Source: Candidatus Nanohaloarchaea archaeon
GTDB lineage: Archaea; Nanohalarchaeota; Nanosalinia; Nanosalinales; Nanosalinaceae
Assembly: GCA_046497485.1 (NCBI GenBank)
Contig: JAWOFP010000034.1
Span: 1-43,755, forward strand
DNA length: 43,755 bases
Direction: 5' to 3'
Each line of letters starts with the position of its first letter. Position 1 is the first letter of the stretch. Below the pieces are notes generated by a model. The model was given only the letters and a program-made list of their open reading frames with translations, made no database searches and was not told where the DNA came from. This document shows, piece after piece, positions 14,461 through 33,362 of the stretch. The position numbers and the translations under genes were made by a program.

Positions 14461-14931
14461 TTATTCATCCATACGGATACCGCCTACAAAGCCTCCGCTC
14501 GAAACCTGATCTGTCAGGCCTTCATTGTCGAAAATTATCTCCACATCGAAGTCTTGTCCAGTATCGTTTCTGGAGAAGTTCGGCAGTCTTACCTCGGCAG
14601 ATTCTTGAGAGCCTAACTCTAGAACATCGGGATCATCTTCTGCCTCTGAAAAATTGCTGTCTCTAAATCTTAGCCGTCCAGAAGGATCTTCAACTGTAAC
14701 ATTCTTCACTTCTGCAGTTCCTCTTCTAGCATTTGTTATCTGCAGACTGAGATTACCTTCGCTTGTAATACCAAAATCCTCCAATAGGATTGACTGACCC
14801 GCCCATCCCGTGACTTCCTCGACATCCTGATCTTGAGCAAGTGTAAAGATAAGGCCTCCGACAATCGCCACAACAAGTAACATCCATCCATAGGTCATTA
14901 AGTACTCGATTGCGGACTGTCCTTTCGTCAT
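14461..14931 (-). CDS. type IV pilin-like protein (class III signal peptide) #1
   Basis: KG|QSAIEYLMTYGW, a hydrophobic helix and a small beta-sandwich. Confidence 0.85.
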   Translation of the reverse strand: MTKGQSAIEYLMTYGWMLLVVAIVGGLIFTLAQDQDVEEVTGWAGQSILLEDFGITSEGNLSLQITNARRGTAEVKNVTVEDPSGRLRFRDSNFSEAEDDPDVLELGSQESAEVRLPNFSRNDTGQDFDVEIIFDNEGLTDQVSSGGFVGGIRMDE

Positions 14932-14990
14932 ACCTTAACTTTAGAGAGTCTGTTAAAAAAGGTTACCGCAGCCCCAAATCTAGAAAGTGT

Positions 14991-15581
14991 TTAATTCTCA
15001 AGGCTGCAACCAGTCAGCTCCGAGTAAAACTCTTGACTCTGAACTCCCTGATAAAACTCGCCGTTATATGAAGTTACAGGCAAATTCTGGACTCCAGACT
15101 GGTTCAACTGCTGGGCAACCTGTTGATTTGCTTCAACATACACATTTTCGAGGCCTGCTGTACCTAGAGTCTGTAACTGCTGCTGAGTTGCTTGCTGCTG
15201 AGAGGATCCAATGATTGTTACATTGTTCTGGCCAAGGCATTGATTAAACTCATACTGGGCTGAAACCGTCTCAGTATAATTATTAGCGTTCACAGGATTA
15301 TTCAAGATATACTGGCCGTCCTTACTGACAAAGACATTCTGAAGCCCGTTACCAGACTCAATTATAACCCTGTAAATACTTGGAGACTCGCTTTCAACGC
15401 TCGCAACTTCAACCTCTAATCCTTGAGCTTCAAAGGCCTCAGTCACAATACTCGAGGCCTCAGACTCGCTGACATTTCCCATCGACAAATGATAAACTGC
15501 AGCACCTGCTAGAAGGCCTATAATTAATGATATAATTACAGGGATAAGAAGTTCCCTCTGCTTGATTTTCTTTAAGTTCAT
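14991..15581 (-). CDS. membrane-anchored thioredoxin-like protein lacking CxxC
   Basis: TM, DsbC-N-like 'YRVII...VFVSKDGQYIL', then a Trx-like 'F.QCL...G...Q...YVE...P...NG..YQG....TGC' segment. Confidence 0.55.
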   Translation of the reverse strand: MNLKKIKQRELLIPVIISLIIGLLAGAAVYHLSMGNVSESEASSIVTEAFEAQGLEVEVASVESESPSIYRVIIESGNGLQNVFVSKDGQYILNNPVNANNYTETVSAQYEFNQCLGQNNVTIIGSSQQQATQQQLQTLGTAGLENVYVEANQQVAQQLNQSGVQNLPVTSYNGEFYQGVQSQEFYSELTGCSLEN

Positions 15582-15665
15582 GCTTAGGACTTAGGCCTAG
15601 ATGTTTATAATAACTGTTTAATGGGAAAAGCTATATGCAATCTAGCAGAAAATAAATAAAAAATA

Positions 15666-17948
15666 TTACCTTGTCTGGACAACACCAAATCCATCTGTTG
15701 AAACAACGCCTTCAGAATTAGATATAACAATGCTTCCTATTAGAGATTCTAGAACATTCTGAGCTTCAAGCTGATTTTCAGTATCTAAAGATTGGAGAAT
15801 CGGATAACCATCCTGTTTAGCTTTTTCATCTGAGGCCTGAACTGTCTTCCATGTATTCTGGAAATCAAGTCCATTCATATTACTTGAAGCTGAGCTCCCA
15901 TTCATTTGGTCAGTTGTTAAAGATGTACCGCCTGCACTACTGCTCTGGCCTGAGGCCTCCGTATCCCAATAAGAACTTCCTACAGTTCCTCCATCTCCAA
16001 CTAAACCTCCTGAATCATAGTTATTTTGGCCATATACCCTCCCATAACTATAGCTGTTTTCCACAGCACCATTATTCAATTGTCTGCCGACTAAACCCCC
16101 TATCCTTCTATCGCTTGACCCATTCACAGCTACTCCGCTATAAGAGTTATTAATTATTCCTCCATCATTTAACCCTATTAAACCTCCAATTTGTTCATCT
16201 GCCTCAACATTTCCTGAAGCCGCAGCAGCATGAACTTCCCCTCTATTCCATCCTATCAAAGTTGCAGAATAATAGCCCCCATTAATATCCGCATTTTTTA
16301 ATTGAATATCTCTAACAATCGAAGAATCAGATGTCTCTGCAAATAAGGCAGAATAACTGCCATCATCTATAGATAAATCCTCAATTGAACGGCCTGCGCC
16401 ATCAAAAACCCCCGAAAACTGGTCGGAATCTGCAATAGGCTGGAAATCAGAACCAGAGCACGAAATTGAGTCCGTTAATTTATAGCTACTTTCAAACAAA
16501 GATTCCTCATTTATAGCTCTAAGATCATCGCAGCTCCCTATTTCATAAGGCACATTTCCTTCTCCGCACCCATTCCATGGCAAGTCTTTATTTGTCTGAT
16601 TCTCCCAAGCTAAACGAGGGTAACAAGAAACAGAATCCCATATCGCCTCAAAATCAAATCCCTGAAGATTTTCTTCAGCAGGCGTTCCAACCATCTCAGA
16701 AGTCATAAGACCTTCACCGCCAGAAGATCCAGACTGACTTGACGAATTCACATCCCAGTATGAATCTGTTGCGGTCCCATCACCCATTAAACCTCCAGAA
16801 TCATAACCATCAGAACCAATAACTTTCCCCGTACTATAACTTCTGTATGCTCCTCCGCCTCTACCCACTAAACCACCAATTCTAGTATTATCTGTACCAT
16901 TAACTTGCACCATGCTGTAAGAATCATAAACTTCTCCATACTGATTAAAACCAGTTAAACCTCCTAGTTGAGAACTACCCGAAACGCTACCCTCTCTAAC
17001 AAAACTCTGCCTGATTTCACCATTATTCCAGCCAACCAAGCCCCCTGTATACAGCCCGCCAGAAACAGTAATATTTTTTAGTCCAATCCGTTCAACGGTA
17101 GAAGACTCTGAAATACCTCCAAATAATCCTGTATCTGAGCCTTCATTTATTGACAAACCCGAAATAATATGGCCGCTACCATTAAAATGGCCTTCAAACC
17201 TGTTATCACTGTCTCCTATCGATTCAAAATCGCCAAAACCACTGCAATTAATGTTATTAGATAACTGATAATTTTCAGATAAGTTATTTCTCATAGATTG
17301 CAAATCACTACAGTTCTGGACTTGAACAAATGTTGATGCTGATTCTACATCCATGCTCCATACTGTTGAGAAAGAACCCCATTTGATTTCAGGCCTTTCT
17401 CCTTCTTCGAATGATACAATTATTTCTGCATCCGCATTCTCTGAATTTTCAATTGATTCCAAGTTACCTGTTAAGGCCTGGACTGGGATATCCTCTATCC
17501 TATTATCGTTTACTGCTTCGACATCATTGATTAGGTCTTCTTCAAATCCTTCTCTCTTAGGATAATCTGTGAATCTCTCTTGAACCAGGTTTCTAACTTC
17601 TTCATTATTTGAGGCCTGTAAAACTTGTTCACCGAACTCTGTCAATTCAAAGTTAAGCGCCGATTTGTAATAGAGTCGGCCATTCCTTGAGTCCTGCCGC
17701 TCTATACTGACGGTCTCGATATCAAACACATATTCGCTTCCGAGTTCGCCTTCAAAAGTATCCGTGTACTCAGTCGAGGCCTGAACAGTTCCAGATTCAT
17801 TATTCTCATTTTGACTTGCTTCAGGTTCAGAAGCTTGATCGCTTGGACCTTCAACTATACTAGAAATATCTGCCTGGAAAAATATGGCAAGGCCTAAGAA
17901 AGCAAAGATCCCTAGAAATGCTAAAGCCGTTTTATGTCCTTCATCCAT
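15666..17948 (-). CDS. membrane-anchored surface protein with two GLUG-repeat beta-helix modules
   Basis: N-terminal TM; duplicated 'I..C.DL..I...Y.L...I.CSG..F.PI...F.G.F.G.G..I..LSI' with GGLVG repeats and SYWD...S.Q..S.GG. Confidence 0.85.
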   Translation of the reverse strand: MDEGHKTALAFLGIFAFLGLAIFFQADISSIVEGPSDQASEPEASQNENNESGTVQASTEYTDTFEGELGSEYVFDIETVSIERQDSRNGRLYYKSALNFELTEFGEQVLQASNNEEVRNLVQERFTDYPKREGFEEDLINDVEAVNDNRIEDIPVQALTGNLESIENSENADAEIIVSFEEGERPEIKWGSFSTVWSMDVESASTFVQVQNCSDLQSMRNNLSENYQLSNNINCSGFGDFESIGDSDNRFEGHFNGSGHIISGLSINEGSDTGLFGGISESSTVERIGLKNITVSGGLYTGGLVGWNNGEIRQSFVREGSVSGSSQLGGLTGFNQYGEVYDSYSMVQVNGTDNTRIGGLVGRGGGAYRSYSTGKVIGSDGYDSGGLMGDGTATDSYWDVNSSSQSGSSGGEGLMTSEMVGTPAEENLQGFDFEAIWDSVSCYPRLAWENQTNKDLPWNGCGEGNVPYEIGSCDDLRAINEESLFESSYKLTDSISCSGSDFQPIADSDQFSGVFDGAGRSIEDLSIDDGSYSALFAETSDSSIVRDIQLKNADINGGYYSATLIGWNRGEVHAAAASGNVEADEQIGGLIGLNDGGIINNSYSGVAVNGSSDRRIGGLVGRQLNNGAVENSYSYGRVYGQNNYDSGGLVGDGGTVGSSYWDTEASGQSSSAGGTSLTTDQMNGSSASSNMNGLDFQNTWKTVQASDEKAKQDGYPILQSLDTENQLEAQNVLESLIGSIVISNSEGVVSTDGFGVVQTR

Positions 17949-18061
17949 CTATAGTTGAGGCCTCCAATAGATCTATAACCTGTATTTAGTTGTCTTCAGA
18001 CTTAAAATATAGTGACGGAATAATCGACAAATATTTACAGTTTAATCCCAAAACGGGAATT

Positions 18062-18385
18062 ATGCCACTGGCGTCTCAGGAAGAAATCGAAAACTTTGCA
18101 GACCATGTTAGAGCAGAGTTTGGGGAAAGATTAGAAGAAGTAATACTCTACGGATCATATGCAAGAGACGACCATGTACCTGGAAGCGACATAGACATAG
18201 CAATACTTGTAAACGGGAAGAAAAAAGATGATAGAGAAAAAATGTTCGATATAGCCGATAAATTTAGGGAAGAAAAAAATCTTAAATTCTCACCTCGCGT
18301 ATTCGAAAAGAAAGAGTTTAAGAAGAAAGCAGAGAACGACTGGAGCTTCCACTCAAATGTCGAGAAGGAAGGTGTAGAGATATGA
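18062..18385 (+). CDS. MNT minimal nucleotidyltransferase (antitoxin of a HEPN-MNT pair)
   Basis: LYGSYAR......SDIDI motif; start placed at ATG 18062. Confidence 0.92.
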   Translation: MPLASQEEIENFADHVRAEFGERLEEVILYGSYARDDHVPGSDIDIAILVNGKKKDDREKMFDIADKFREEKNLKFSPRVFEKKEFKKKAENDWSFHSNVEKEGVEI

Positions 18386-18750
18386 AGGAAGAAGAAAACT
18401 TGATCGGAAACGCAGAGGAAAGACTTTCAACAGCAAAACTGCTTCTAGAAAACGAAAAATATGGGGATGCTGTCTCAAGAGCATACTACTCAATGTTCAA
18501 CGCCTCCAAAGCCATTCTTCTTACTGAAGATTCAAAGCCTAGAACACATCAAGGAGTGAACAGCGAACTCGGAAAGCTTTTCAGAGAAAGAATAGACAAA
18601 GAACTCCTCAGAGAATTTTCAAGAATCCAGCAAATAAGAGAAGATGTAGACTACGGAACAGAAACGAAAATAAGCCAAAAAGAATCTGAAGAAAAAATAG
18701 AGATAGCAGAAGAATTTCTCATACAAGCCAAAAAAATAGTGGAAAAATAA
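18382..18750 (+). CDS. HEPN domain protein (toxin of a HEPN-MNT pair)
   Basis: A..RAYYSMF..KA.L, TH.GV and R...DY motifs; overlaps the MNT gene. Confidence 0.9.
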   Translation: MKEEENLIGNAEERLSTAKLLLENEKYGDAVSRAYYSMFNASKAILLTEDSKPRTHQGVNSELGKLFRERIDKELLREFSRIQQIREDVDYGTETKISQKESEEKIEIAEEFLIQAKKIVEK

Positions 18751-21700
18751 TTACTCCACAACCTGGCCTGAAACAGTTATCGACGCAGTCACATCGCTTC
18801 CATCACTGTTCGTGACCCTAACCGTTACATCAGATCCTTCCGAACCCTTCCCAACATCATTGATAGGAGTACCAGCAGTAGTGCTTCCCAAAACAGTACC
18901 CGAACCAGCATCATACACCTCTACCTCAAAATTACTGTTCGAGCCGCCGCCCTTCACTTGGACATCCAATCTTTCAATCTCAACACTCTCAGTACTATTA
19001 GTTCCAAACCTATTAACCTCCTCAGTTGAAAGGCCTGAACTCCAAGCAGTATGCCCACTACTATAACTAACCTCTCTAACATTCTTCTCATCAATCTGAC
19101 CATCAACACTTAGGTTTCCAGTCACATCAACATCATAAGGCTGAGAATCACTGCCAAACCGGGCAGTGTAATCACTGTTAGAAACAGAGTCTGCACCGAT
19201 TGCAACTGAGCCTTCACCCCCTGCAGAAGCCCCTGTTTCTGAGTTGTCACTATCTCCACCTATTGCAGTTGAGAAACTGCCTGAAGATTCAGCTCTCCAA
19301 CCAATTGAATTTGAAAAATCTCCTGATGATTTTGTTTCTCTTCCTAGTGCGATGGCAGAAGTCCCTGATGAATCTGCCTTATAACCTAATGCTGTCGCTG
19401 CATATCCTGTGTTATCAGCATCATAGCCTAAGACAGCTGAATAACCGCCTTCTGATGTAGCTTCCTTTCCAATTGCAATGTCTGAATTAGTGTTTGCGTT
19501 GCTACCAGCTTTTGCGTCCTTTCCTATTGCTATATCCTGAAACTCTGACCTGACATCAGCCCCAGTACCAATCACCACTCCACTCGGCATATCAAGGCCT
19601 CCCTCTCCATGAATCGTGGCATTACCCGTAACATTCAAATCTAGTTCCTCACCGTTCAGGTTGCCGAAAGTAGCCTCATAACTATTAGGCGCATTAGCAT
19701 ATTCTCCTATAGCTACCGATCCCTCAGCAGAGGCCTCAGATAGGGCGCCTAGGCTTACAGAGCTCTGACCAGATGAAACTGCGCTACTTCCAAATGCCGA
19801 TGCATCTGTCCCTGCAACAGAGTCAATACCAATTTCTGTACCGCCTGTACCGCCTGAACCTGGAGCATCTGTATTCCCTCCTATAGAAACTCTTGCAGCG
19901 TCAAAGGCCTCAACACCAGATCCAATAGCTATAGAGGGATTACTACTTGTGCCCACAGCCCCAGCACCATTACCAATAGCTATGTCATCGGTATTAGGGC
20001 TTTCAGTGGTGCTTTCTCCAATTTCAATACCATTACTAAATTCTATACTCTGATTCGCAACATTTCCAGCAGCCAAAGTCTCGCTGAGGCCTTCAGGAGC
20101 ACCACCGGTAGAGACACCGGTTAATTCACCGCCAACATTTAGATCACCTTGAACATCAGCATCCTGATGAACAGTAGCATTACCTGTAACATTCAAATCC
20201 AGTTCCTGACCTTGAAGGTTGCCTAAAGTGGCCTCATAACTATTAGGAGCGTTGGCATGGTATCCTATGGCTACGGAGCCTTCCGCGGTTGCATCTGTAT
20301 ATGATCCAAGTGCAGAAGCATAGCTACCTGTCGCCTTGCTATAGTATCCGAATGCGGAAGCTTGACTACTGGTAGCCTGGCTTTCCTCACCGAATGCAGC
20401 TGCGTAGGACGCTACTTTTGAGTTCCTACCGAAAACAGCGCTATAATCTTCAGCTTCAGCAGACCAGCCTACAGCAGTAGAGTAAGAGTTAACATCGGTA
20501 TCTTCACCGATAGCAATTGAAAACGTGTTACCCATAATCTTATCCTCTACCGTGGCGTTCTTACCGATAGCTATAGCGTCAAACTCTGTACCAGTATCTT
20601 CATCACCAATCTGAATATTATCCTCAAACTCAATAGTCTGATTAGCCACATTATTTTCCTCTAAAACCTCTGAAAGGCCTGAAGCAGAACCTCCGCCAGT
20701 ACTGACACCAGTCAATTCTCCATCAACATTGAGATCGCCAGTCACATCGACATCATAGGGAGTGGCATTACTTCCAAACCGGGCGGTGTAATCTTGATCG
20801 GAGATGGCGTCCATTCCAAAGGCGAAGCTTCCTGTTCCTGATGCTGATGCCGTATCTCCTAATGCATATGCATCGTTTCCTGAAGCTGAGGCCTCGTCTC
20901 CAATGGCATATGCGTCAGCGTTGGAGGCGTCTGCGTCTTCACCTAAAGCATACGCATCGCTCCCTGAAGCTGAGGCATTCTTTCCGAGTGCGTAGGCCTG
21001 ATCGGCAGAAGTCTCTGCACCATATCCAAGAGCGAAAGAAAACTGTCCATCTGAGGTTGCAGCGCTGATAGCTACTCCTTCATTTTGCAGGGCTTCAGCA
21101 CCTTCTCCCAGTGCTATAGTGTCTTTATTAGCTGCATATGCGTCTGAACCGATTGCCACCGCTTCATTAGCCGAGGTTTGTGCGCTGTGGCCTATGGCTA
21201 CAGCAGATCCTGCAAAATCAACATTATTATTTACGCTTACGTTTCTGCCAATACCAATAGAATTCTGATGTCCAACATACACATCGTCCCCCATAGCTAT
21301 CGATGAGTCTCCCTGATTATCTATGTTGTCGCCTATTTTGATTTGAGTATTGTCAAAAGATATAGGATTAGTCTGCATATCTAGAGGCCTGTGGGCGAAC
21401 ATGAGACCATTGTCCCTTTCAGCTGAGATCACGTCATATTCGTTTCCATCATTTTCTGTACCTATTACCACCCTATTATCATTAGTATCTCCATCAAACT
21501 GGCTATCATACTCAAGATAAGCACCATAATCATCACCTTCCTGCATCCTATAAGACATCACAGGATCACCCGCTTGAGGCTGTCTTAGTTCAACATTTCC
21601 AACCTCATTCAAATCATTATTACCAAGATCAATCGATTGATTAGCTGTATTATCTACTTCTAAAACGTCAGAAAGGCCTGAAGTTGAGCCATCTATCGAG

Positions 21701-21924
21701 CTACACTGAACTGTTCCATCGTCATTTATTCCAGTTGCCGCCTGATCGCCTGAACACGAACTCAATGGAAATCCTTGGATATTGGAATTCAGAATAACAT
21801 TATCATTGAACTCTGTCGGAGTTTGAAAGATTATATTTTGGTCATGGTTAAATGTTATATTTGCGGCTGCGAGGCCTGAACTTAGTAGAATTATGGCTGT
21901 AAGTGCAGTTAGTTTTAGTTTCAT
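18751..21924 (-). CDS. secreted YadA-head (Hep/Hag) repeat adhesin-like protein, no autotransporter barrel
   Basis: Sec signal; many 14-aa 'A.A.G..A.A.G' repeats in four blocks separated by repeated neck-like segments (G.L.V.G, GLSEVL...N.ANQ). Confidence 0.85.
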   Translation of the reverse strand: MKLKLTALTAIILLSSGLAAANITFNHDQNIIFQTPTEFNDNVILNSNIQGFPLSSCSGDQAATGINDDGTVQCSSIDGSTSGLSDVLEVDNTANQSIDLGNNDLNEVGNVELRQPQAGDPVMSYRMQEGDDYGAYLEYDSQFDGDTNDNRVVIGTENDGNEYDVISAERDNGLMFAHRPLDMQTNPISFDNTQIKIGDNIDNQGDSSIAMGDDVYVGHQNSIGIGRNVSVNNNVDFAGSAVAIGHSAQTSANEAVAIGSDAYAANKDTIALGEGAEALQNEGVAISAATSDGQFSFALGYGAETSADQAYALGKNASASGSDAYALGEDADASNADAYAIGDEASASGNDAYALGDTASASGTGSFAFGMDAISDQDYTARFGSNATPYDVDVTGDLNVDGELTGVSTGGGSASGLSEVLEENNVANQTIEFEDNIQIGDEDTGTEFDAIAIGKNATVEDKIMGNTFSIAIGEDTDVNSYSTAVGWSAEAEDYSAVFGRNSKVASYAAAFGEESQATSSQASAFGYYSKATGSYASALGSYTDATAEGSVAIGYHANAPNSYEATLGNLQGQELDLNVTGNATVHQDADVQGDLNVGGELTGVSTGGAPEGLSETLAAGNVANQSIEFSNGIEIGESTTESPNTDDIAIGNGAGAVGTSSNPSIAIGSGVEAFDAARVSIGGNTDAPGSGGTGGTEIGIDSVAGTDASAFGSSAVSSGQSSVSLGALSEASAEGSVAIGEYANAPNSYEATFGNLNGEELDLNVTGNATIHGEGGLDMPSGVVIGTGADVRSEFQDIAIGKDAKAGSNANTNSDIAIGKEATSEGGYSAVLGYDADNTGYAATALGYKADSSGTSAIALGRETKSSGDFSNSIGWRAESSGSFSTAIGGDSDNSETGASAGGEGSVAIGADSVSNSDYTARFGSDSQPYDVDVTGNLSVDGQIDEKNVREVSYSSGHTAWSSGLSTEEVNRFGTNSTESVEIERLDVQVKGGGSNSNFEVEVYDAGSGTVLGSTTAGTPINDVGKGSEGSDVTVRVTNSDGSDVTASITVSGQVVE
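20820..21030 (-). repeat. tandem 42-nt (14-aa) repeats ASASG.DAYALG
   Basis: About five degenerate copies, also visible in the DNA (cctgaagctgaggc recurs). Confidence 0.8.
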
Positions 21925-21967
21925 GTTTTATGGTTGTATGATTGTTGTGTTGGGTTTAATTTAACAT

Positions 21968-22735
21968 TTAGTCTTGAAAGCCTGTGAAAGTGAGGCCTGA
22001 TGAAGGGTTTATTGATGGAAGCTGTAGGTTCCCGTCCATTGTATTGTTTTGGCTTGAAACGTTTCCAGGGAGTGTTTGAGGGCCTTGAGCGCAGTTATCT
22101 CCGAAGCATTCTACTTCTACTTGGCTTGTTGTAAGCGTTCCTGTCATGTTGTCTCCTGAACGCGCCACTAATTCATTTGAATCGACCGTGTTTTCCGGGC
22201 AGTTATTTCCTATGCAGAGGCCTTTTGACTCATTCGGTACTAGTGATGCGTTGATTCTGAGTTCAGAGATTTGGCCCCCTCCAACGCTAAGATAGTTGAT
22301 TACTGCTTCTACTAGCGTTACAGGCAGTCTAATTGTGCCTTGAAGTCTTTGGTTTTGGACAGGGCCTCTGTCATGAACGATTGTAATATCCATTTCTGCG
22401 CAGCCGTTGCTTTCGTTCCCTTCCGCAACCAGGTACTGTTCTGTTTCTCCCGGTTCGAGCACCAGATTTGAGCCTTGTGTCACCCCACTTTGACCTCCTA
22501 TATTTACTTCTCTAATCCTTATTTGATCATTTGAAGAGCTTCTGAACAACATTTGAAGCTGATTCTGAGAGTTAAGGCCAGCTTCTTCAACTCTTAGATC
22601 AGGATGGAACACATCAGTCTCAACATCACATGAAGAAGAGTCTGTATAGGAATAAATACCGCCTGTAACTACTCCTAAGGCTATGACTGCCCATCCATAT
22701 GTTATCAGGTACTCGATTCCAGACTGGGCTTTCAT
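21968..22735 (-). CDS. type IV pilin-like protein #2 with C-terminal tail-fibre-like repeats
   Basis: KA|QSGIEYLITYGW; C-terminal CIGNNC...VARSGDNMTGTL and CFGDNC...VSSQNNTMDGNL. Confidence 0.8.
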   Translation of the reverse strand: MKAQSGIEYLITYGWAVIALGVVTGGIYSYTDSSSCDVETDVFHPDLRVEEAGLNSQNQLQMLFRSSSNDQIRIREVNIGGQSGVTQGSNLVLEPGETEQYLVAEGNESNGCAEMDITIVHDRGPVQNQRLQGTIRLPVTLVEAVINYLSVGGGQISELRINASLVPNESKGLCIGNNCPENTVDSNELVARSGDNMTGTLTTSQVEVECFGDNCAQGPQTLPGNVSSQNNTMDGNLQLPSINPSSGLTFTGFQD

Positions 22736-22780
22736 TTACAAGTAGTTTTGAGGCCTCGAATATAATTCAAAGGGTCTGAA

Positions 22781-22813: not shown

Positions 22814-22836
22814 TAACCCCCTCATATCAGAGAACA

Positions 22837-23316
22837 TTACGGGCTCGAATTTATTTGTTCTTTCGTCCATTTCACTAAATCTTTAGTTATAAACAGACTA
22901 GAGTCTCTATAGAGCGAATCAACTACCTGATTAGCCTCATTTTTATCAATAACATTCTCAGAGTATGCTTTCGTAACTAGTGCAAGAGTTCCATGAGGTT
23001 CTAAATCCAGTGATTTAGCTGTCTTTCTAGCATCAAGATCATCTGTAAAAATTAATTCTGAGTTTATCTGACTGGATAGTGCTATAACTGTGGATTCTCC
23101 GAGATCTATACCATATCTAGATGAAATATGCTTCGCCCTATCTTTACCTGAGGCATTAAGTGTTTCTACATCCAAACGCGTTTTGTTGATTATAGCCTCT
23201 CCAACTTCGTTCTCCACTTCTTCAGTGATATGTCTTTCATCTATAACTTCTAAAATCTCTAACTTGTTAATCTGTTCTAAATGTATTATAGGTCCTGCGT
23301 CCAGGACTGCCTTCAT
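22837..23316 (-). CDS. PIN-domain toxin (DUF3368/COG2405-like)
   Basis: VLDAGPIIHL, IDLGES..IAL, FTDD..AR..A and GTL motifs. Confidence 0.88.
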   Translation of the reverse strand: MKAVLDAGPIIHLEQINKLEILEVIDERHITEEVENEVGEAIINKTRLDVETLNASGKDRAKHISSRYGIDLGESTVIALSSQINSELIFTDDLDARKTAKSLDLEPHGTLALVTKAYSENVIDKNEANQVVDSLYRDSSLFITKDLVKWTKEQINSSP

Positions 23317-23510
23317 TCGTTGAGACCCCATTTCACGTCTTCCTTTATGGCATCCTCTAACTGTTCTGACTTCATTTCTCTTATTTTCTGTCTAACTGCA
23401 TCTCTTACTAGTTCTGAACGGTTAGCATACCATCCATCTTCTACTATTTCGTTCATTTCTTCAACCATTCTACTTGGAAATTTAGTAGGCACAGAATCAG
23501 TTTCTCCCAT
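23313..23510 (-). CDS. ribbon-helix-helix antitoxin
   Basis: P.......V..G.Y.NRSELVRDAVR; overlaps the PIN gene start. Confidence 0.88.
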   Translation of the reverse strand: MGETDSVPTKFPSRMVEEMNEIVEDGWYANRSELVRDAVRQKIREMKSEQLEDAIKEDVKWGLNE

Positions 23511-23605: not shown

Positions 23606-23628
23606 CCGGCATCTACAACTACAGAATT

Positions 23629-25483: not shown

Positions 25484-25860
25484 TCCAATTAGCTGGAAAC
25501 ATCATAATAGAAGACTCCAAGATACTACTGCTCTACAAGAAAAATGAAGAACACTGGGAAGTTCCAGGCGGAAAAGTAGAAGAAAATGAATCTCCTACAC
25601 AGACCGCAGTTAGAGAAGCCAAAGAAGAAATAGGAGTAGAAATAGAGTTAGAGAGGCCTTTCTACACTGGAGAGTTCCAGCACAACGATGAGATCTTTGA
25701 ATGGAATGGATATATCTCCTCAATCAAAGAAGGAAGGCCTGAAATTCAAGAAGATAAATTTGAGAAATTAAAATGGTTTTCTAGAAAAGAACTAGCAGAA
25801 TGCGATAACTTAGCGCCAAATATCAGAATGGTCGAGAATGGGATTATCAGGCTTCTTTGA
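25480..25860 (+). CDS. NUDIX hydrolase
   Basis: Nudix box GGKVEENESPTQTAVREAKEEIG. Confidence 0.93.
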   Translation: MIQLAGNIIIEDSKILLLYKKNEEHWEVPGGKVEENESPTQTAVREAKEEIGVEIELERPFYTGEFQHNDEIFEWNGYISSIKEGRPEIQEDKFEKLKWFSRKELAECDNLAPNIRMVENGIIRLL

Positions 25861-25919
25861 CGAATAAAGTTTGATATTGTATCAAAGAAAATTTAAAGTT
25901 TCGTGCACACTGTGTATGT

Positions 25920-26150
25920 ATGTCTACCAAAAATATATCTCTGGATGAGGACGCATATAATCGGTTAAAGAACCTTAAAGATGAAGGAGAGAGCTTCAGC
26001 GATGTTGTGAAAAAAGTGACAAATGAGCGTTCATTAAAGGAGATAGCAGGCATAATATCGGACGAAGAGGCCGATCTAATGAAAGAAAAAATCAGCGAAA
26101 ATAGAGAAGAAAGTCTAAAAAGATTAGATAAAGTAGCTGATAGCCTATGA
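25920..26150 (+). CDS. vapB: VapB-like antitoxin (DUF217 type)
   Basis: TKNISL.EDAY.RL..LK..GESFSDVV motif. Confidence 0.88.
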   Translation: MSTKNISLDEDAYNRLKNLKDEGESFSDVVKKVTNERSLKEIAGIISDEEADLMKEKISENREESLKRLDKVADSL

Positions 26151-26539
26151 TTCTAGATACAAACTTCATTATAGATGTAATGAATGGAGACAAAGAGGCC
26201 TTAAATAAGTTAGATAAACTTGAGAATTCCTCTAGTCCTGTCTCGACCACCGCTATAACTTTATTTGAACTTTGGTCAGGAATCAATAGGTCCAATAAAT
26301 CTGAAGAGGAAAAAGAGAAAGTAATGAATGTGATAAGTTCCCTAACTATTTTTTCTCTCGATGAAAAATCTGCAAGGATAGCTGGAAGAATAGATGGCGT
26401 GCTTGCAGACAACAAAGAAAAAATGTCTCCAGAAGACTGCAAAATAGCAGGTATAGCGATTAAAAACTCAGAAAAAGTAGTAACAAAAGATAGAGATTTC
26501 AGCACAATACAAAAATATTCTACTTTAGAAATAGAATAG
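26147..26539 (+). CDS. vapC: VapC PIN-domain toxin
   Basis: ILDTNFIID, T..EL..G, D..IA.IA and VT.DRDF motifs. Confidence 0.92.
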   Translation: MILDTNFIIDVMNGDKEALNKLDKLENSSSPVSTTAITLFELWSGINRSNKSEEEKEKVMNVISSLTIFSLDEKSARIAGRIDGVLADNKEKMSPEDCKIAGIAIKNSEKVVTKDRDFSTIQKYSTLEIE

Positions 26540-26582
26540 AAATAAAATAGGAAATAAATGAGGGAAAATGTAGGCCTTGTTT

Positions 26583-26780
26583 TTAGACCAGTTGGTACTT
26601 TCCGACTTCGTCGATTGATTCGACATGTGTGAGGAATACTGTTCGGCAGCAGTACTTTTCGACTCCTAGGTCGTCTAGTACTTCGCCTGCGTCTTCATCG
26701 TCATCTGTTCTTTCCTCAAATTCTTCGTATTTGTCGCTGAGTACCTTTCCACAGCTTGGGCATCTTACAGGGAACTGCAT
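26583..26780 (-). CDS. rpoN: RNA polymerase subunit Rpo10 (N)
   Basis: PVRC..CGK and LDDLGV..YCCR motifs. Confidence 0.95.
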   Translation of the reverse strand: MQFPVRCPSCGKVLSDKYEEFEERTDDDEDAGEVLDDLGVEKYCCRTVFLTHVESIDEVGKYQLV

Positions 26781-26787
26781 AACTGAT

Positions 26788-27189
26788 TCACCTGTAGGAT
26801 TTCTGCTGTTTGTGTCGAGCTCCCTTGCTCGACTGTGAAGGTTTTCTGGTCTCAGTTCTTCTTGGATCTTCTACAAGCATGTTCCTATCGTAATCTCGGA
26901 ACTCTGCTTCCAAGTCATCGTCTCCGGTGTGCTCTACCAATGCTCTGGCTACAGCCATGCGTGCTGCTTCTGCCTGACCGTTCTTTCCACCGCCTTCCAT
27001 CTCTACCTGGATCTGAAGATCTCCGTAGACTTCTTCTCCAGCTATTCTCAATGGTTCTTCAATCATTCTCCGTGTTGAGTCCTGCAGTACATCTAGAGGC
27101 CTGGAACCCACTCTGATTGTCCCATCACCGTCTTTTACTGTTGCTCTGGCCTTCGCCGTCTTTCTCTTTCCTGAAGTGTGTACTGCCAT
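26788..27189 (-). CDS. rps9: 30S ribosomal protein S9 (uS9)
   Basis: GKRKTA.A.A, GGG..GQA.A.R.A.ARAL and GAR...QKSYR motifs. Confidence 0.97.
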   Translation of the reverse strand: MAVHTSGKRKTAKARATVKDGDGTIRVGSRPLDVLQDSTRRMIEEPLRIAGEEVYGDLQIQVEMEGGGKNGQAEAARMAVARALVEHTGDDDLEAEFRDYDRNMLVEDPRRTETRKPSQSSKGARHKQQKSYR

Positions 27190-27611
27190 TAGTTTTTACC
27201 TCCTATATGTTTAGCTACATCTCCAAGTTTTACATAGTTCCTGTTCATCAATTCATCTCCTTCCTTCACATTAATCTCTTCAATTTCTTCATCTGCGAAC
27301 TCTCGAGGAACTCCAAGGTAAGTCTTTACAAGGGCGTGCTGCTCTCTTCCAGACTTTTTCTCCTTTGGAAGCATTCCACGGACAGTCCTCTTGAAAATCT
27401 TATCACTTCTCTTTGGGAAATAAGGACCTGTGTCTCTCCGACCTCTATCGTATTTCTGCTTGTAATCCGCGAAAATCTTATCTTGGTCGCCAGAGATCAC
27501 GATTCCCTCACTGTTTACAACTCTGACTTCCTCGCCGTCTCTTACTTCGGATGCGATATGGGAAGCGAGTCTTCCGAGAATCTTTCCTGATCCATCAATT
27601 ATCTTTGTCAT
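27189..27611 (-). CDS. rpl13: 50S ribosomal protein L13 (uL13)
   Basis: IIDG...ILGRLAS, GP..PK and RTVRGMLP motifs. Confidence 0.97.
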   Translation of the reverse strand: MTKIIDGSGKILGRLASHIASEVRDGEEVRVVNSEGIVISGDQDKIFADYKQKYDRGRRDTGPYFPKRSDKIFKRTVRGMLPKEKKSGREQHALVKTYLGVPREFADEEIEEINVKEGDELMNRNYVKLGDVAKHIGGKN

Positions 27612-27614
27612 TAT

Positions 27615-27965
27615 TTATTTCACCATTTTGAGGCCTTCTGCTTCAGGATTTTCCTCAAATAAATCCTCGATAAACATGAAGTCTCCGGATTCTTCGATCT
27701 GGTTCTGGGCATTGTTAGAAGCCTTGAATGCTGCTACATTGACTTCTTTCGATAGTCGTCCAGAGCCTAAAACTTTCCCGGGAACGACAACTGTGTCGCC
27801 TTCTTCAGTATTCCTTTCAATGTCAGAAAGGTTGACTTCAGGCCTTCTACGATTTACTTTTCCAAGATTTTGTGCTACATCGTTCCAGAAAGAAGCGTCT
27901 GCTTCCTCTAGGGATTCGATGGTTTCAATTAAAATCGGGTTTGTAGGATCTGCTTTATTATCCAT
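27615..27965 (-). CDS. rpl18e: 50S ribosomal protein L18e (eL18)
   Basis: TNP, RR.EVNL..I and VVPGKVLGSG; start placed at ATG 27965. Confidence 0.95.
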   Translation of the reverse strand: MDNKADPTNPILIETIESLEEADASFWNDVAQNLGKVNRRRPEVNLSDIERNTEEGDTVVVPGKVLGSGRLSKEVNVAAFKASNNAQNQIEESGDFMFIEDLFEENPEAEGLKMVK

Positions 27966-28049
27966 AATTAAATTGCACCTCGCCACACTAGTGTGACTGC
28001 TGGTAAATAAGTTAATGAAAGACAAGATTTTTAAACACAGATATCAGCA

Positions 28050-28382
28050 CTATCTCCAAGGAATATAGACTATCTCATTTTTCAGTTGGTCTACAGATAT
28101 TGAATTAAGTACCTTAATAACATCTGATGCTGTCCGTTTTTTACTCTGGCGTTTAGTTTGAAGAATAACGCCAACTTGATTCTCCTCACTTAATTTTCTG
28201 AAATCATCATCCCTTGTAAGTATAGAACGGTCGTGCTCTTGAGCATATTCAACCAACTTCATGTCGCCAACACCTTTCATATCAAGATCTTGAATATGTA
28301 CGACATCTATACCATAGGCCTCTAGTCTTTTGACAACAGTCTTTGAGATATGTTCATCCGCTAACAACTTGTGATCAGGCAT
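28050..28382 (-). CDS. DUF5615 PIN-like toxin
   Basis: LLADEHI, G..D....YA and ILTRDDDF motifs. Confidence 0.88.
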   Translation of the reverse strand: MPDHKLLADEHISKTVVKRLEAYGIDVVHIQDLDMKGVGDMKLVEYAQEHDRSILTRDDDFRKLSEENQVGVILQTKRQSKKRTASDVIKVLNSISVDQLKNEIVYIPWR

Positions 28383-28617
28383 TTGCCTCTACCTTGGATC
28401 TGAGCTCCTCACGCACAGTTTTCTTGTTATCATAGAAAAATCTTAATGCATCAAGAACCTGCTGAGGTTCAATACCATATTCTTTAGAAATCTCTTCAAT
28501 ATCCCATCCTAGTTCTTGATAGGCCTCCACTACATCCACAACACGGATCCTAGTGCCTTTAATCCTATGCTTGCCTCCGAAATGTCCTTCAGTGGAAACA
28601 ATATTTTCTTCAGCCAT
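28375..28617 (-). CDS. DUF433 antitoxin
   Basis: GGK.RIKGTRI.V..V and I..EY.I...QV.DAL motifs. Confidence 0.9.
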   Translation of the reverse strand: MAEENIVSTEGHFGGKHRIKGTRIRVVDVVEAYQELGWDIEEISKEYGIEPQQVLDALRFFYDNKKTVREELRSKVEANA

Positions 28618-28671
28618 AAATTATTCTGATTAATTAATTGATAAATATATTCCGGTAGGCCACCACATGGA

Positions 28672-29148
28672 CTAACCTGAGTAATCTACAAACAAGTTAT
28701 CTGGGGCTATTGGGGCTTCGCCGCCGACACTGAAAGGCCCTGTAACAGTTCCTGTGGCGCTTTGGTCATCGAGGCCTTCAATACTGTAAACTAGTTCTAT
28801 ATCAAAACTATTGCAGCCGCTGGATTCCTCAAATCCTGTAACTGTTACAGAAGAAACTCCTCCCGGATCTAGATCGCCATCCGTCACCGCAATAGAGCTG
28901 TTCTCAATTACGACTTCCTGAATCTCTACATTATCAGATCTCCTGTTCTCAAGAGCAATTGCTAACTCACTACCCGTAGTAAGGCCGAAATCCTGGATCT
29001 GGACGCTTTCACCTACAAAACCTGAACTCGACTCAACACAAGCAGTTCCAAAACTAGAGTAGGCGACACCTGAAACAATCGAGACCGTTATCAGCATCCA
29101 GCCATAGGTCGTCAAGTACTCGATCGCAGACTGCCCTTTCCTATTCAT
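28672..29148 (-). CDS. type IV pilin-like protein #3 with a C-terminal FN3 A-strand-like tail
   Basis: MNRKG|QSAIEYLTTYGW; ends APIAPDNLFVDYSG; ATG overlaps the upstream gene's stop. Confidence 0.85.
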   Translation of the reverse strand: MNRKGQSAIEYLTTYGWMLITVSIVSGVAYSSFGTACVESSSGFVGESVQIQDFGLTTGSELAIALENRRSDNVEIQEVVIENSSIAVTDGDLDPGGVSSVTVTGFEESSGCNSFDIELVYSIEGLDDQSATGTVTGPFSVGGEAPIAPDNLFVDYSG

Positions 29149-32030
29149 GGGTTCGAACCTCCAAGGCATTGATCGCCTCCGTCCTGATAACCTGCTTTTT
29201 CTCCCCCAAACCTGTTCCAGGCCTCAACCTGGTAACAATCACTTTGAGAATTATCTTTCAAGCCTGGATTAGCGACTCCAATTTGATAGAGATCATTTTG
29301 ATCAGAGCTTAAATCTTCAATCGGCACCGAAGCCACCTGACTGTAACTAGAGTTAGATGTAGCATTGTAAAGCACCCGGAACTCATCGACATTGTCTCCG
29401 GGATGAGTGAACTCAACTTCTGCTACATGAGTTGAGAAGTCGATAGTATTTGAAACAAACTCGCTGCTGTCTAAAGGTTCAGTTCCTGAAAGATAATAGG
29501 CCTCAGCACTGTAACCTTTGGAGTTCTCATTTACAATCCCGATTTTCGAAAGATTTAGAGAAATAACTTCTCCATCATCAACATTTCCTCTCGTAAACTG
29601 TCGAGTTTCAGTCCCGTTTGAAACATTAAACTCAAATCCCATATCTTTCTCTCCATCAGGATCAGAATCAACCTGGAACGCAATCGCATTCTCCCCATAT
29701 ACTTTCAGGTCTCCAAAGTTTCCAGGATTCAAGTTATCGCCGCTTGATATATCCTGAAGATTGTAATCCACGCCGTTTATATCTGCAACAGTAAAGTTGT
29801 AGAAATTATCGCTGTTATCCCTTTCAGCACCATAGGCCTCCAATGAGACATTCCATCTCTCAACAGAACCATTTCCGAAATCACTGATTCCTGAAGTATC
29901 GACCTGAACAGTATCTCCAGGATTAACATTGTTAGAAGTCTTAAAGTCGATTCCAGTAGATTCTCCAACCGTCACATTAATCGGGCTGTTACCATCAACA
30001 GTTACATTCAAGACAGGATTAGGATCGACAGACTCATCATGAGGCTCCGCCAAAGACACTTGAGGCCTCTCAACCGTTGTAAAGTTCCAGACCTGGCTTT
30101 GAGCACTTTGTCCATTGTAGGTAGAGTTAGAGTACCATTCATACTCTGTGCCTGGATCAAGATTCTGACTTTCTAGGCTTACATTGATCCTTTCATTTGG
30201 AGAGGAAAGATTGCCGCCTAAAGCAAGATCGCTCCCGGACTCATTCACAATATAGAACTCGAGGCCTGTCTCAATACCTGAAGAATTACTTTCCGCACTC
30301 AAATCCCAGTCAAGGCCTACCGGCTCAGAATCATTCTTCGGTAAAGGATTAACCGGAGGATTTAGTGTAGAGACATTGAGGACCTGAGTCGCGTAATCGC
30401 TGCCACTGGAAAAGTTTGCAGTATACTCTCCTGAATCGCCCTCACTCGTAGAAATACTCAAGGTCTCAGTAGTGGCGCTTCCTCCATCCAAAGTCAGAGA
30501 AGTAGAGTTGGAACCGAGACCCGGAATACTTAGATCCAATGTGGTGCTTCCATCAGCGCCCGTATTCTCAATCAAGGCCTCAACCTCAACATCATTGCCC
30601 TCAATCACAGGCTCATTGACATCCTGAACAGTAACAGCAAAGTAAGGCCCTGTTGCAAAACTAACGACGCCTCCAGACTCAGTGAAGAGCTGTGTTGTTG
30701 ACTTAGTTATTTTACTGCCTACCTCTCCATCCTCCGATTTTGCTCTAAATTCGTACTCAGTATCAGGATTCAAACCCTCAACTCTTTCTTTATAAAATCC
30801 GTCTACTGAACGCTTATCAGCATTTACAGTATTCCATGTTGATGCGCCTGTTTCTTTATACTGGAACTGCAGCTGGATTTGATCATTAATATCTCCAGTA
30901 AACTGTGATACATCAGTGATTTCTCCATTAAATCTAAACCAGTCAACACCGATATCTGCTCCAGTAGTTGAAATATTATACCTGCTGGTAGTATCAGAAT
31001 TTACGCTTCCACAGTAATCCTTTGTACAGGCTTCAAACTCGTAATCTGTATCAGGGTTAAGACCTGTGACAACCCGATTGAATGTTTCCGAGCTATCGAT
31101 AGTTCCTGCATCAACCTGCTGCCAACTCCCTCCTGTTTCCCTGTAATTAAACCATGCATTGATCGGGTCCTCTAAATTAGATAGACTTGAAGCTTCCCCT
31201 GTAAAGTTTAACGACCTATCACCTACTCCATCTGTTCCGGTTGTCAAAACACTGTAATCCTGAGTTGTGAAAGACTGCTGTCCTCCAGACTGCGTAAACA
31301 ACTGAGTAGTGTATTTTGTCAAGATGCTGCCTTGATAACCGTCCTCCGACTTAGCCCTGAACTCATACTCTGTATTCGGACTAAGGCCTTCAACACGCTC
31401 TTCAAATATGCCGTCACTATCCTTCAAATCTGCATTGGCAGTAGTCCAACTAGGTGCCCCAGCCTCTCTATACTGAAACTGCAACTGAATCATATCATCT
31501 ATAGTATCCGTAAAACCTGCAACATTCTGAATATCTCCTCTGAATCTCAGCCAATCGACCCCGATATCAACACCCTCAGTTGAAACACTATAAGTACTTG
31601 TTGTATCTGAATCGATCCCGCCTCCGTAGTCTTTAGTAAAAGCCTCAAATTCGTACTCAGTACCAGGATCAAGACCTGTAACTACACGGCTAAAAGCTTC
31701 TGAATCTTCAACTGTTCCAGCATCAACCTGCTGCCAAGAATCACTCGTCCCTGCTTCCCGATACTTAAACCAGGCCTCAACAGGATCATCAACAGAACTT
31801 AGGCCTGTAGTATTCCCTGTGAAATTCAAGGATTTATCGCCCACTCCATCCGTTCCAGTAGTATAAACCTGGTAATCCTGAGTAGTGAACGAAACATTTC
31901 CTCCCGGCTCAGTAAAGACATCTACAGCTAAGCCTCCAGCACTTAACACAACTAAGGTCAGCGATAGAACCAAAGCTCTAAAAACTAAAGTCAAAACATG
32001 CTTCCTTCCACTGTAGAGTTTCTTGAACAC
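29145..32030 (-). CDS. secreted multi-FN3/Ig-domain surface protein
   Basis: Signal peptide; duplicated ~206-aa unit of two FN3-like domains (GL.P.TEYEF); CARDB-like and further Ig-like domains. Confidence 0.85.
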   Translation of the reverse strand: MFKKLYSGRKHVLTLVFRALVLSLTLVVLSAGGLAVDVFTEPGGNVSFTTQDYQVYTTGTDGVGDKSLNFTGNTTGLSSVDDPVEAWFKYREAGTSDSWQQVDAGTVEDSEAFSRVVTGLDPGTEYEFEAFTKDYGGGIDSDTTSTYSVSTEGVDIGVDWLRFRGDIQNVAGFTDTIDDMIQLQFQYREAGAPSWTTANADLKDSDGIFEERVEGLSPNTEYEFRAKSEDGYQGSILTKYTTQLFTQSGGQQSFTTQDYSVLTTGTDGVGDRSLNFTGEASSLSNLEDPINAWFNYRETGGSWQQVDAGTIDSSETFNRVVTGLNPDTDYEFEACTKDYCGSVNSDTTSRYNISTTGADIGVDWFRFNGEITDVSQFTGDINDQIQLQFQYKETGASTWNTVNADKRSVDGFYKERVEGLNPDTEYEFRAKSEDGEVGSKITKSTTQLFTESGGVVSFATGPYFAVTVQDVNEPVIEGNDVEVEALIENTGADGSTTLDLSIPGLGSNSTSLTLDGGSATTETLSISTSEGDSGEYTANFSSGSDYATQVLNVSTLNPPVNPLPKNDSEPVGLDWDLSAESNSSGIETGLEFYIVNESGSDLALGGNLSSPNERINVSLESQNLDPGTEYEWYSNSTYNGQSAQSQVWNFTTVERPQVSLAEPHDESVDPNPVLNVTVDGNSPINVTVGESTGIDFKTSNNVNPGDTVQVDTSGISDFGNGSVERWNVSLEAYGAERDNSDNFYNFTVADINGVDYNLQDISSGDNLNPGNFGDLKVYGENAIAFQVDSDPDGEKDMGFEFNVSNGTETRQFTRGNVDDGEVISLNLSKIGIVNENSKGYSAEAYYLSGTEPLDSSEFVSNTIDFSTHVAEVEFTHPGDNVDEFRVLYNATSNSSYSQVASVPIEDLSSDQNDLYQIGVANPGLKDNSQSDCYQVEAWNRFGGEKAGYQDGGDQCLGGSNP
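30651..31920 (-). repeat. internal tandem duplication (~618-nt unit x2) in the FN3 protein
   Basis: The units SFTTQDY.V.TTGTDGVGD ... EYEFRAKSEDG align along their whole length. Confidence 0.85.
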
Positions 32031-32078
32031 TAAATAGAATATTTTTATCGTTAAATAAAAATGTATTAGCAGAAGTAT

Positions 32079-33362
32079 TTAGTTGAAATCATATGTAGCC
32101 ACATATCCATCGTATGAACTAGTTGCCATTTTAGATCCATCAGGGCTAAATGTTAGGCCATCAGCCCTGCTAGGAGGAGTTATGCTATCAATCTGTGTAG
32201 CCGTGCTAACGTCCCACGGAGCGGACATCTCATACTCATTCATAGTTGCTCCTCCTGCTGAATCAACAAGTATCAGTTTTGAGCCATCTTTGCTGACATG
32301 TATTGAATTGATATCTTCAGTAAGGCCTGAAGTCTTAGATGAAACAAATGAAGCCGTATTAATATCCCAGGGTTCTGATAGCTCATACAGAGAAACCTCA
32401 TCCCCATATCTGGCTAATATCATTTTAGAACCATCTGGGCTAAAATCGATATTGGAATATTCCTTGCTTAATACTTCTTGATATTCATAATTTGCCGTTG
32501 TTAAATCCCAAGGCGTACTTAAACTGTGATACGTAATCTCAGTTTCATCGTCATAATTAATGTAGATTTCATAATAACCAGATCCGTTAGGCATAAACGC
32601 ATAATCTCTACCATTTTCAGTAGTATCTACCCTCTCTCCTGCAGTATTTATATCCCATGGAGTAGAAAGCCTGTACTGATAAATTCCGCTATTTTCGATA
32701 TACATATAACTTCCATTTGAACTAAATTCTATATTGTCCGCATCTATAGAAAGCGTGGTGGAAGAAATTTCATTATAACTCCGTCCTAAATCAATTGAAG
32801 CCGAAGTAGGTAACTCTCCATTGTTAGACTCAAATTCTGAGACAAGAGCCTCTCTACCTTCTTGGCTCGTGGATGCATAAAAGTTATTAAAATCTATAGT
32901 GTCTAAATTTCCTGAAACAGCATTAAACAACTTTATGCCAATACCGCCTCTTGACAATTTTTCATCCAAATTTTCTTCTAAAGTGGTATCCCCCCATATT
33001 ACGGGTTCTGCATAAGCTTCAACACTATATCCAGTATCGGGAGACAATCCTGACGTTAGAGATTGAAGCTGTTCTTCATTAAATGCAATATTTGCCGGAC
33101 CTCTTTGACTTAATGAATTATCTTGAGAATAATTCCAATAAACTAATGCCGCATCGAAATCAGCGTCCAGTTGGTCTACTGTTGCTTGAAAAGTAGCTTC
33201 CGTTTCTTTCACGTTCGTAACTGGATCTGTAGTAACATTGAGATTGTATTCTCCGCTCTGTTGTGGAGAAACCTGTCCTACCGCGTTTGTGATAGCGAAC
33301 CCGATAAGGATTAGAAGGCCTATGCCTGCTGCAATATGATGCTTTTCTGTTTTAAGCTCCAT
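32079..33362 (-). CDS. secreted protein with an N-terminal FN3-like domain and a C-terminal beta-propeller
   Basis: Signal/TM; VTT......A.F.A...GLSPDTGY; repeated F...GS.....Y.LS.PWD..TA blades. Confidence 0.8.
   Translation of the reverse strand: MELKTEKHHIAAGIGLLILIGFAITNAVGQVSPQQSGEYNLNVTTDPVTNVKETEATFQATVDQLDADFDAALVYWNYSQDNSLSQRGPANIAFNEEQLQSLTSGLSPDTGYSVEAYAEPVIWGDTTLEENLDEKLSRGGIGIKLFNAVSGNLDTIDFNNFYASTSQEGREALVSEFESNNGELPTSASIDLGRSYNEISSTTLSIDADNIEFSSNGSYMYIENSGIYQYRLSTPWDINTAGERVDTTENGRDYAFMPNGSGYYEIYINYDDETEITYHSLSTPWDLTTANYEYQEVLSKEYSNIDFSPDGSKMILARYGDEVSLYELSEPWDINTASFVSSKTSGLTEDINSIHVSKDGSKLILVDSAGGATMNEYEMSAPWDVSTATQIDSITPPSRADGLTFSPDGSKMATSSYDGYVATYDFN

Follow-up and report, generated by a model that had tools for sequence, protein, structure and literature searches.

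Tailed pilins of a nanohaloarchaeon as likely adaptors for separately exported adhesins

Contig JAWOFP010000034.1 of a Candidatus Nanohaloarchaea archaeon (assembly GCA_046497485.1; genome of 968 kb in 66 contigs, 97% complete) was analysed over its whole length of 43.8 kb, which we call the window; nanohaloarchaea live in salt lakes and depend on a host. On one strand it carries three related pilin genes with different 3' ends, amid genes for large surface proteins. Does the end of such a pilin decide which protein it holds? A sequence-only reading of the window had proposed a modular system in which all three pilins are adaptors for interchangeable adhesins. Sequence comparison leads us to a sharper mechanism for two of them: the pilins that have a tail are likely minor type IV pilins which serve as non-covalent adaptors for adhesins exported on their own. 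For the third pilin, which has no tail, the proposal does not hold.

The three pilins (Table 1) are homologous (pairwise phmmer E 5.5e-22, 3.6e-16 and 9e-8) and belong to 15 paralogues in the genome, three of them tailless, eight fused to cargo, three with a short terminal proline motif and one with a Cys tail. The tailless pilin of the window carries the common motif as KGQSAIEYLMTYGW, the pilin with the 115-amino-acid (aa) Cys tail (type C) as KAQSGIEYLITYGW and the pilin with the 18-aa tail (type B) as KGQSAIEYLTTYGW; common motif, paralogy and differing tails (none, Cys repeats, an FN3 A-strand) are as the earlier reading described them. All three have a class III signal, K-G/A-Q-S-A/G-I-E with predicted cleavage before Q and then a hydrophobic run, and across the family K-G/A-Q-x-x-x-E-Y-L is invariant or nearly so. 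The AlphaFold2 model of the type C core bears out the beta-sandwich seen earlier, with seven strands plus a helix at residues 5-21 (low confidence). Of 48,161 chains compared, the one most like it is the archaeal type IV pilin 8fk7 of Pyrobaculum (Z 9.1, root mean square deviation 2.6, 88 residues aligned), tied within 1 Z with ApaG-like folds; on this model, tie included, the family has the archaeal type IV pilin fold. The three pilins gave no Pfam match at E 0.05 or 0.01, including PF04021, PF07790 and PF01917. In the Atlas they fall next to unnamed DPANN clusters, in one of which 18% of the members have PF04021, and those relatives of the window's pilins and adhesins that bear a name come from Candidatus Nanohalobium and Nanohaloarchaea.

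A profile of the pilin family matched 46 of 70 genomes of the phylum. All matches outside the window's own genome except seven (three long fused proteins, four fragments) became survey loci, and 78 metagenome loci were added. Rows that were partial, open-ended, duplicate or below 60 bits were dropped, as were distant metagenome rows below 100 bits with the exception of L129. This left 140 non-redundant pilin cores: 62 tailless, 47 fused, 16 type B, 14 type C and one other. Of 452 database homologues the best 120 include 53 with the B tail.

The tail of the type B pilin reads like the first strand of an FN3 domain. It scores 13.6 bits on an A-strand matrix made from unrelated complete FN3 domains, and 14 of the 16 type B tails, a class set by the proline pair or motif in the tail, score above zero (median 12.6 bits) against none of 123 other family members. 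The ATG of this pilin overlaps the stop codon of the gene for a secreted 961-aa protein, and the C-terminal FN3 domain of that protein, the acceptor, lacks strand A. Six strands make up the acceptor model, whose superposition on solved FN3 structures starts at about residue 14-21, i.e. at strand B. The residues ahead of it form the last strand or strands of the preceding domain; because these directly adjoin the acceptor, the missing strand is not a cutting artefact. P-x-x-P-x-x-L before strand B occurs in none of 21 C-terminal acceptors, as opposed to 524 of 589 complete homologous domains, the latter taken from the top 150 matches of a search of 1.8 billion proteins with the acceptor profile; that search returned multi-FN3 proteins, which are useful as controls and blind to the range outside the phylum. 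All 21 acceptors end at most five residues from the C-terminus of their protein; in 20 of them the last strands contain two Cys. As in a donor-strand pair, an immunoglobulin (Ig)/FN3 fold short of one strand stands beside a partner whose terminal segment has the sequence of the missing strand. A sequence search of the PDB with the type B alignment gave two designed Ig proteins only (E 0.05). One type B pilin, L046:7009-7641, has three tandem A-strand-like repeats in its tail.

Tail and acceptor also occur together. Of the 16 type B pilins 14 have an acceptor at most 1 kb away (15 if the wider locus L181 is counted, in which it is divergent); the 14 type C, 62 tailless and 47 fused pilins have none so close. 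The acceptor profiles A6 and A9 derive, like the plug motif discussed below, from the partner proteins themselves; an early profile of eight domains, A4, found acceptors for six of the eight type B pilins not used to build it. Clear C-terminal acceptors occur in 12 of the 70 genomes, seven of which have a type B pilin of the family, and weak profile matches come from G028, G008, G002 and, once, G047. In G062, G063 and G064, which have acceptors and no family pilin, one Pilin_N-type pilin each ends in an A strand. Next to the one in G063 is the gene of a secreted protein, interrupted where the contig ends, and an acceptor fragment starts at another contig end; tail and acceptor are both nearest to the C52 pair of the window's genome. 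None of 69 Pilin_N-type pilins from 37 acceptor-less genomes ends in an A strand (60 regions chosen from the best 150 of 228 matches); four of them score slightly above zero, at best 3.0, inside the core. In L220 it is a type C tail that a Pilin_N-type pilin carries, and a fibre gene comes next. Since both tails are found on this second pilin family, they are swappable, as had been proposed. We observe in passing that no member of the KGQSAIEYL family was detected in the genus of G062-G064, even in a 99% complete genome, and that Pilin_N-type pilins seem to take over its roles there, fused cargo and tails included.

Within type B the tail goes with the acceptor. Over 14 cognate pairs, kin pairs among them not being independent, the more alike two tails are, the more alike their acceptors tend to be (Spearman 0.37, Mantel p 0.003; 0.37 and p 0.008 with 13 pairs); likeness of the pilin cores shows no such trend (0.15, p 0.19). 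A quick tree of the cores calls for 10 changes of the B tail, of which strong branches force three or more. In one strongly supported clade the same-locus orthologues of G046 and G049, both without acceptor, are tailless.

All three type B pilins of the genome abut a large secreted protein (961, 1030 and 1571 aa). The split adhesins of the survey have their own signal peptide and none has a membrane segment after it. Complete ones have a median length of 1093 aa as against 402 aa for fused paralogues, and 13 of 17 are longer than the longest fused pilin (677 aa). The fused paralogues hold the same cargo types in one chain. The sequence-only reading had the tail match, in two cases, the fold class of the neighbouring adhesin; we reject this, as the cargoes behind one acceptor vary (FN3, GLUG with PKD or LamG, PA14, LamG arrays, DUF2341, DUF285) and the match is with the small coupler module in front of them.

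We suggest that display proceeds in the following steps. The prepilin peptidase would cut the pilin after K-G/A, and the pilin would be built into the pilus or cap it. This pilus probably has as its bulk subunit the tailless paralogue whose gene lies next to the TadC-like ones; many tailless pilins come directly behind such a gene. The adhesin, with its own signal peptide and no membrane anchor, would be exported separately. The last 15 or so residues of a type B pilin would then insert as strand A into the C-terminal FN3 domain of the adhesin and complete its fold, while a disulfide could staple the free G strand. With standard FN3 topology, entry of the pilin and exit of the remaining adhesin would be at opposite poles, the adhesin pointing away from the pilus. 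That the acceptor is short of a strand and the tail is such a strand can be read directly; that the tail binds there as strand A is, in our view, very probable. Splitting would let the cell display large or trimeric cargo and exchange it without touching the pilin.

The type C pilin has its partner directly downstream, a protein with YadA head repeats (PF05658, E 1.9e-28), no match to the YadA anchor and no membrane segment after the signal. Each repeat of the tail has a period of 40 residues, a GDxMxGxL segment and a CxGxxC end; CxGxxC is kept in two repeats of the window tail and in three in six relatives. The mature partner starts with a motif like (E/D)-F-R-x-x-x-P-I-x-F, which we call the plug. 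A plug partner lies directly downstream of 11 of the 14 type C pilins by profile and of 13 when L017 (a Tat-exported partner, found by motif) and L187 (found by genome search) are added; the fourteenth pilin sits at a contig end. Type B, tailless and fused pilins have no plug partner downstream. The 16 neighbours of other pilins that bear a signal lack the motif, and of 217 signal-bearing open reading frames of the genome one has it, the YadA protein itself; because the motif was drawn from the partners, these negatives are the independent part of the test. Covariation of tail type and neighbour type, which the earlier reading had named as its touchstone, thus holds for types B and C with no crossing and fails for the tailless pilin and its GLUG neighbour. 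Several type C partners match phage tail-fibre families; a scan of viral contigs with the type C alignment gave 112 pattern matches, none of them a relative.

Given this covariation, we lean slightly towards a socket and plug for type C. The three in-chain repeats could form a pseudo-threefold socket, or three pilins could trimerise, and the socket would take the N-terminal plug of a homotrimeric tail-fibre-like adhesin; this stoichiometry, like the interaction of tail and adhesin as such, we infer from comparative evidence. Five Sec-type fibres have a CxGxxC end of their own, and in three cases the next protein bears a Tat signal and resembles the plug at its mature N-terminus; such segments may be daisy-chained. 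In L017 signal-less LamG proteins come after the Tat-signal partner. A variant fibre start, H-P/N-L-S-Q/E-I-x-P-x-D, was seen in L205, L211, L213, L222, L223, L224 and L178, where no type C pilin was found; these fibres are often preceded by a membrane-anchored protein of 150-200 aa, perhaps another anchor.

Several points weigh against the adaptor scheme. The positives of both types are partly circular, since A6, A9 and the plug motif were built from partners, and so are the A-strand scores, since type B is defined by the proline motif; related genomes in the survey inflate all counts. As A strands, two of the 16 B tails fall below zero. Acceptor-bearing proteins number three in G006 (88% complete) and one in G038, the latter 269 bp from a contig end, and four search routes found no donor in either genome; a DNA pattern search for donors there gave matches at chance level. 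Conversely, L129 has a textbook A-strand tail and no acceptor within 7 kb. G062 has donor and acceptor on separate contigs, with no pilin among the acceptor's neighbours. Nor is the pairing one to one: L092:2015-7465 has two type B pilins behind one adhesin, and in L041/L180 two acceptor-bearing adhesins lie upstream of one type B pilin. As to type C, the predicted local distance difference test score of the tail is below 50 in the single-chain model and no fold was obtained; likeness between tail and partners is weak (hhalign probability 30%, 19 columns); and fibre proteins occur in 30 of the 70 genomes, many with other N-termini and no type C pilin. The type C tail has no Pfam match, and an Atlas search (best 0.83) gave no lead.

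The donor strand might serve only as chaperone or secretion licence, the adhesin ending on the S-layer or being released, as in type II secretion or with TcpF and CofJ. The signal peptides and missing anchors of the adhesins would suit this, and so would the membrane-anchored Ig/PKD proteins that precede several of them. However, in donor-strand systems a strand which completes a fold usually stays bound, and the fused paralogues show the same cargo types permanently on the pilin. Although type IVb pili are known to secrete with tip binding, to judge from the available sections of one account (PMC6048534), we regard this explanation as unlikely.

Alternatively, the adaptor pilins never polymerise and stay in the membrane by their N-terminal helix as surface anchors for adhesins. 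The family indeed has no Pfam pilin match, many paralogues lie far from assembly genes, and the assembly holds no complete prepilin peptidase gene, just, at one end of contig C9, a 3' fragment (E 1e-26) which searches with PF01478 and PF06847 missed. On the other hand the genome encodes a T2SSE assembly ATPase and four T2SSF (TadC-like) genes, the A24 peptidase is found in 61 of the 70 genomes, the tailless orthologue lies beside TadC-like genes in most genomes, and the cleavage motif is conserved as described above. We think this quite improbable; the coupler claim would survive it. That the pairs are mere fission remnants of fused pilin-adhesin genes, with an acceptor that folds alone or is completed by another protein, is very improbable: genes that abut or overlap, the 47 fused paralogues and the acceptors without donor in G006 would fit, but a simple fission of pilin and cargo cannot explain an order that is mostly adhesin then pilin, nor a C-terminal acceptor on an adhesin that has a signal peptide itself. 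The tail is found again in distant clades of pilins and in a second family, and has been lost where there is no acceptor.

How does the adaptor scheme compare with known systems? In the chaperone-usher pair FimG-FimH the adhesin ends in an Ig-like domain short of one strand, which the next pilus subunit provides. That strand is G; it comes from an N-terminal extension, chaperone and usher take part, and the pilus is not of type IV, whereas here a C-terminal tail would supply strand A of an FN3 domain. Compared with trimeric autotransporter adhesins, the YadA head repeats are present and the C-terminal outer-membrane beta-barrel anchor was not found in the 1057-aa protein. In the bacterial PilC/PilY1-PilK systems the C-terminal 6-10 residues of the adhesin complete a minor pilin (available sections of PMC12918778). 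A secreted adhesin would likewise be held on a type IV filament by one strand exchanged with a minor pilin, though with reversed polarity, the pilin tail completing the FN3 domain of the adhesin, and with no sequence link: PilC/PilY1 adhesins have a C-terminal beta-propeller (PilC domain) whose final strand completes PilK, and ours gave no PilC/PilY1 Pfam match and end in an FN3 acceptor or in fibre segments. For type C the closest analogy is CofB-CofJ/TcpB-TcpF, where a minor pilin with extra C-terminal domains anchors the N-terminal peptide of a secreted protein at a threefold interface (PMC6048534, in part). CofB is a homotrimer with an H-type lectin groove; type C has three Cys repeats in one chain and a partner that is itself tail-fibre-like. 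The modular pilins PilB and PilC of Streptococcus sanguinis, with adhesive modules fused to the pilin, match our 47 fused paralogues; strand complementation is modelled there, in the available sections (PMC9934059), between two pilin heads and not between a tail and a non-pilin adhesin.

For archaea, type IV filament (T4F) system 1 (Epd-like) of the Nanobdellati/DPANN comprises scattered class III signal proteins, paired platform genes and predicted adhesin-like genes near T4F loci (PMC13705601, PMC4858521). Our genome has the same scattered pilins, platform genes and nearby adhesin-like genes, and the available sections of these accounts describe no coupling module. Papers on nanohaloarchaea report pili-like structures and lectin-like proteins without linking them (10.1101/794461, PMC9563170), and in work on DPANN host recognition lectin-like surface proteins and pili are named separately, some pilins being unannotatable (PMC9563170, PMC4858521), again as far as the available sections go. 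A pilin-donated FN3 strand or a fibre socket is not described in the mostly open-access full-text literature consulted, parts of which were available; the genes may be listed in the supplements to the T4F survey and the Nanohalobium preprint. The principle of strand complementation between adhesin and minor pilin is known from the published accounts available in part; parts and polarity differ here.

A broader and more tentative possibility is a general nanohaloarchaeal plug-and-socket toolkit for pilus tips. Portable tails on at least two pilin families would either capture giant adhesins by completing a split FN3 domain or start off chains of trimers that resemble phage tail fibres, each Sec-exported segment ending in a CxGxxC socket that takes the next N-terminal plug, Tat-exported ones included. 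Such combinatorial tips could play a role in host choice and be re-armed by swaps of accessory genes, much as phages swap receptor-binding proteins. If the adaptor scheme holds, there would be a concrete physical link between surface adhesins and pili of DPANN in host recognition, and pilus-borne adhesins could be listed in any genome by their terminal acceptor or plug. A natural, salt-tolerant split-FN3 tag-catcher pair would also serve protein engineering.

The tailless pilin of the window is an ordinary paralogue and not an adaptor for the GLUG protein. The earlier reading was right that the window has large surface proteins near the pilins (Pfam domains GLUG, YadA_head, fn3 and beta-propeller); the 196-aa gene, however, separates the GLUG gene from the tailless pilin. 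In G023 the orthologue of this pilin (60% identical) lies between the HIT gene and tRNA-Glu with no insertion; in the window the same flanks are 8.7 kb apart, with the DsbC-like gene, the GLUG protein, the YadA fibre, the type C pilin and two toxin-antitoxin-like pairs between them. Because the orthologue occurs without the GLUG gene and the GLUG protein has no coupler, the third pairing is adjacency only, and we rejected it. The GLUG protein and its orthologue L119:4317-5252 have the N-terminal region and a short C-terminal motif in common and differ in the middle, and in a contig of run X1 the middle is likewise replaced. Contigs from one public DNA run have joints within the GLUG, YadA and 961-aa genes with ends kept and middles changed, a mere hint of cargo exchange because the 88% likeness may mean related organisms.

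Table 1. Positions of the features discussed (window coordinates unless a survey locus is named)
Feature	Position	Strand	Remarks
tRNA-Glu	14328..14402	-	edge of variable block
Tailless paralogue	14461..14931	-	resident gene between tRNA-Glu and inserted 8.7-kb adhesin block
DsbC-like protein, 196 aa	14991..15581	-	membrane-anchored; weak DsbC_N match below cut-off
GLUG-repeat surface protein, 760 aa	15666..17948	-	neither coupler module
YadA-head fibre adhesin, 1057 aa	18751..21924	-	secreted; directly downstream of type C pilin
Plug motif	21817..21864	-	N-terminal, right after signal peptide; common to partners of type C pilins
Type C pilin (putative adaptor), 255 aa	21968..22735	-	pilin core and Cys-repeat tail
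Type C tail	21971..22315	-	three repeats of ~40 aa; GDxMxGxL motif tail-fibre-like
Type B pilin (putative adaptor), 158 aa	28672..29148	-	class III-type signal, beta-sandwich core, predicted C-terminal donor strand
Donor tail	28675..28728	-	FN3 A-strand motif P-x-x-P-x-x-L at extreme C-terminus
Adhesin-like protein, 961 aa	29145..32030	-	secreted; FN3-like repeats; no membrane anchor after signal
Acceptor	29148..29435	-	C-terminal FN3 domain without strand A; two conserved Cys (F and G strands)
Beta-propeller protein, 427 aa	32079..33362	-	secreted; upstream of 961-aa adhesin
PKD-containing surface protein, 551 aa	34146..35801	-	
Toxin-antitoxin-like pairs	17990-18750, 22837-23510, 25920-26539, 28050-28617, 33372-34030, 38734-39341		22837 gene without Pfam match
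rtcB-type neighbourhood	35866-41453		further sites: L002, L034, L036, L041, L049, L176, L258, L263
CxGxxC-ended proteins then Tat-signal proteins	L048:7820-10345, L053:7754-9608, L178:9223-10248, L017:2537-3739		

Homologues of the DsbC-like protein lie directly upstream of fibre genes in three other genomes (L211, L222, L223), and it is a candidate folding helper for Cys-rich couplers. The 427-aa propeller protein, considered as a direct partner, was rejected for want of a coupler module. Homologues of the 551-aa protein precede acceptor-bearing adhesins in L092 and L180. The adhesin cassettes have many toxin-antitoxin-like pairs on their flanks (MNT-HEPN, PIN, two DUF433/DUF5615, MazEF). A promoter scan with a bacterial consensus gave matches at chance level.

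Across genera the neighbourhood of rtcB, archease, cytidylate kinase and rpl3 repeatedly hosts type B pilins or acceptor-bearing adhesins. The RtcB of the window (35866-38709) carries an intein (PF14890), and a protein with a helix-turn-helix and a LAGLIDADG-like domain is encoded at 41671-42420. The window further has, in a reduced archaeal genome, a three-part set resembling ATP citrate lyase at 7294-9880 and 12655-13353, made up of an ATP-grasp/citrate-binding part, a CoA-binding part and a citrate synthase C-terminal domain.

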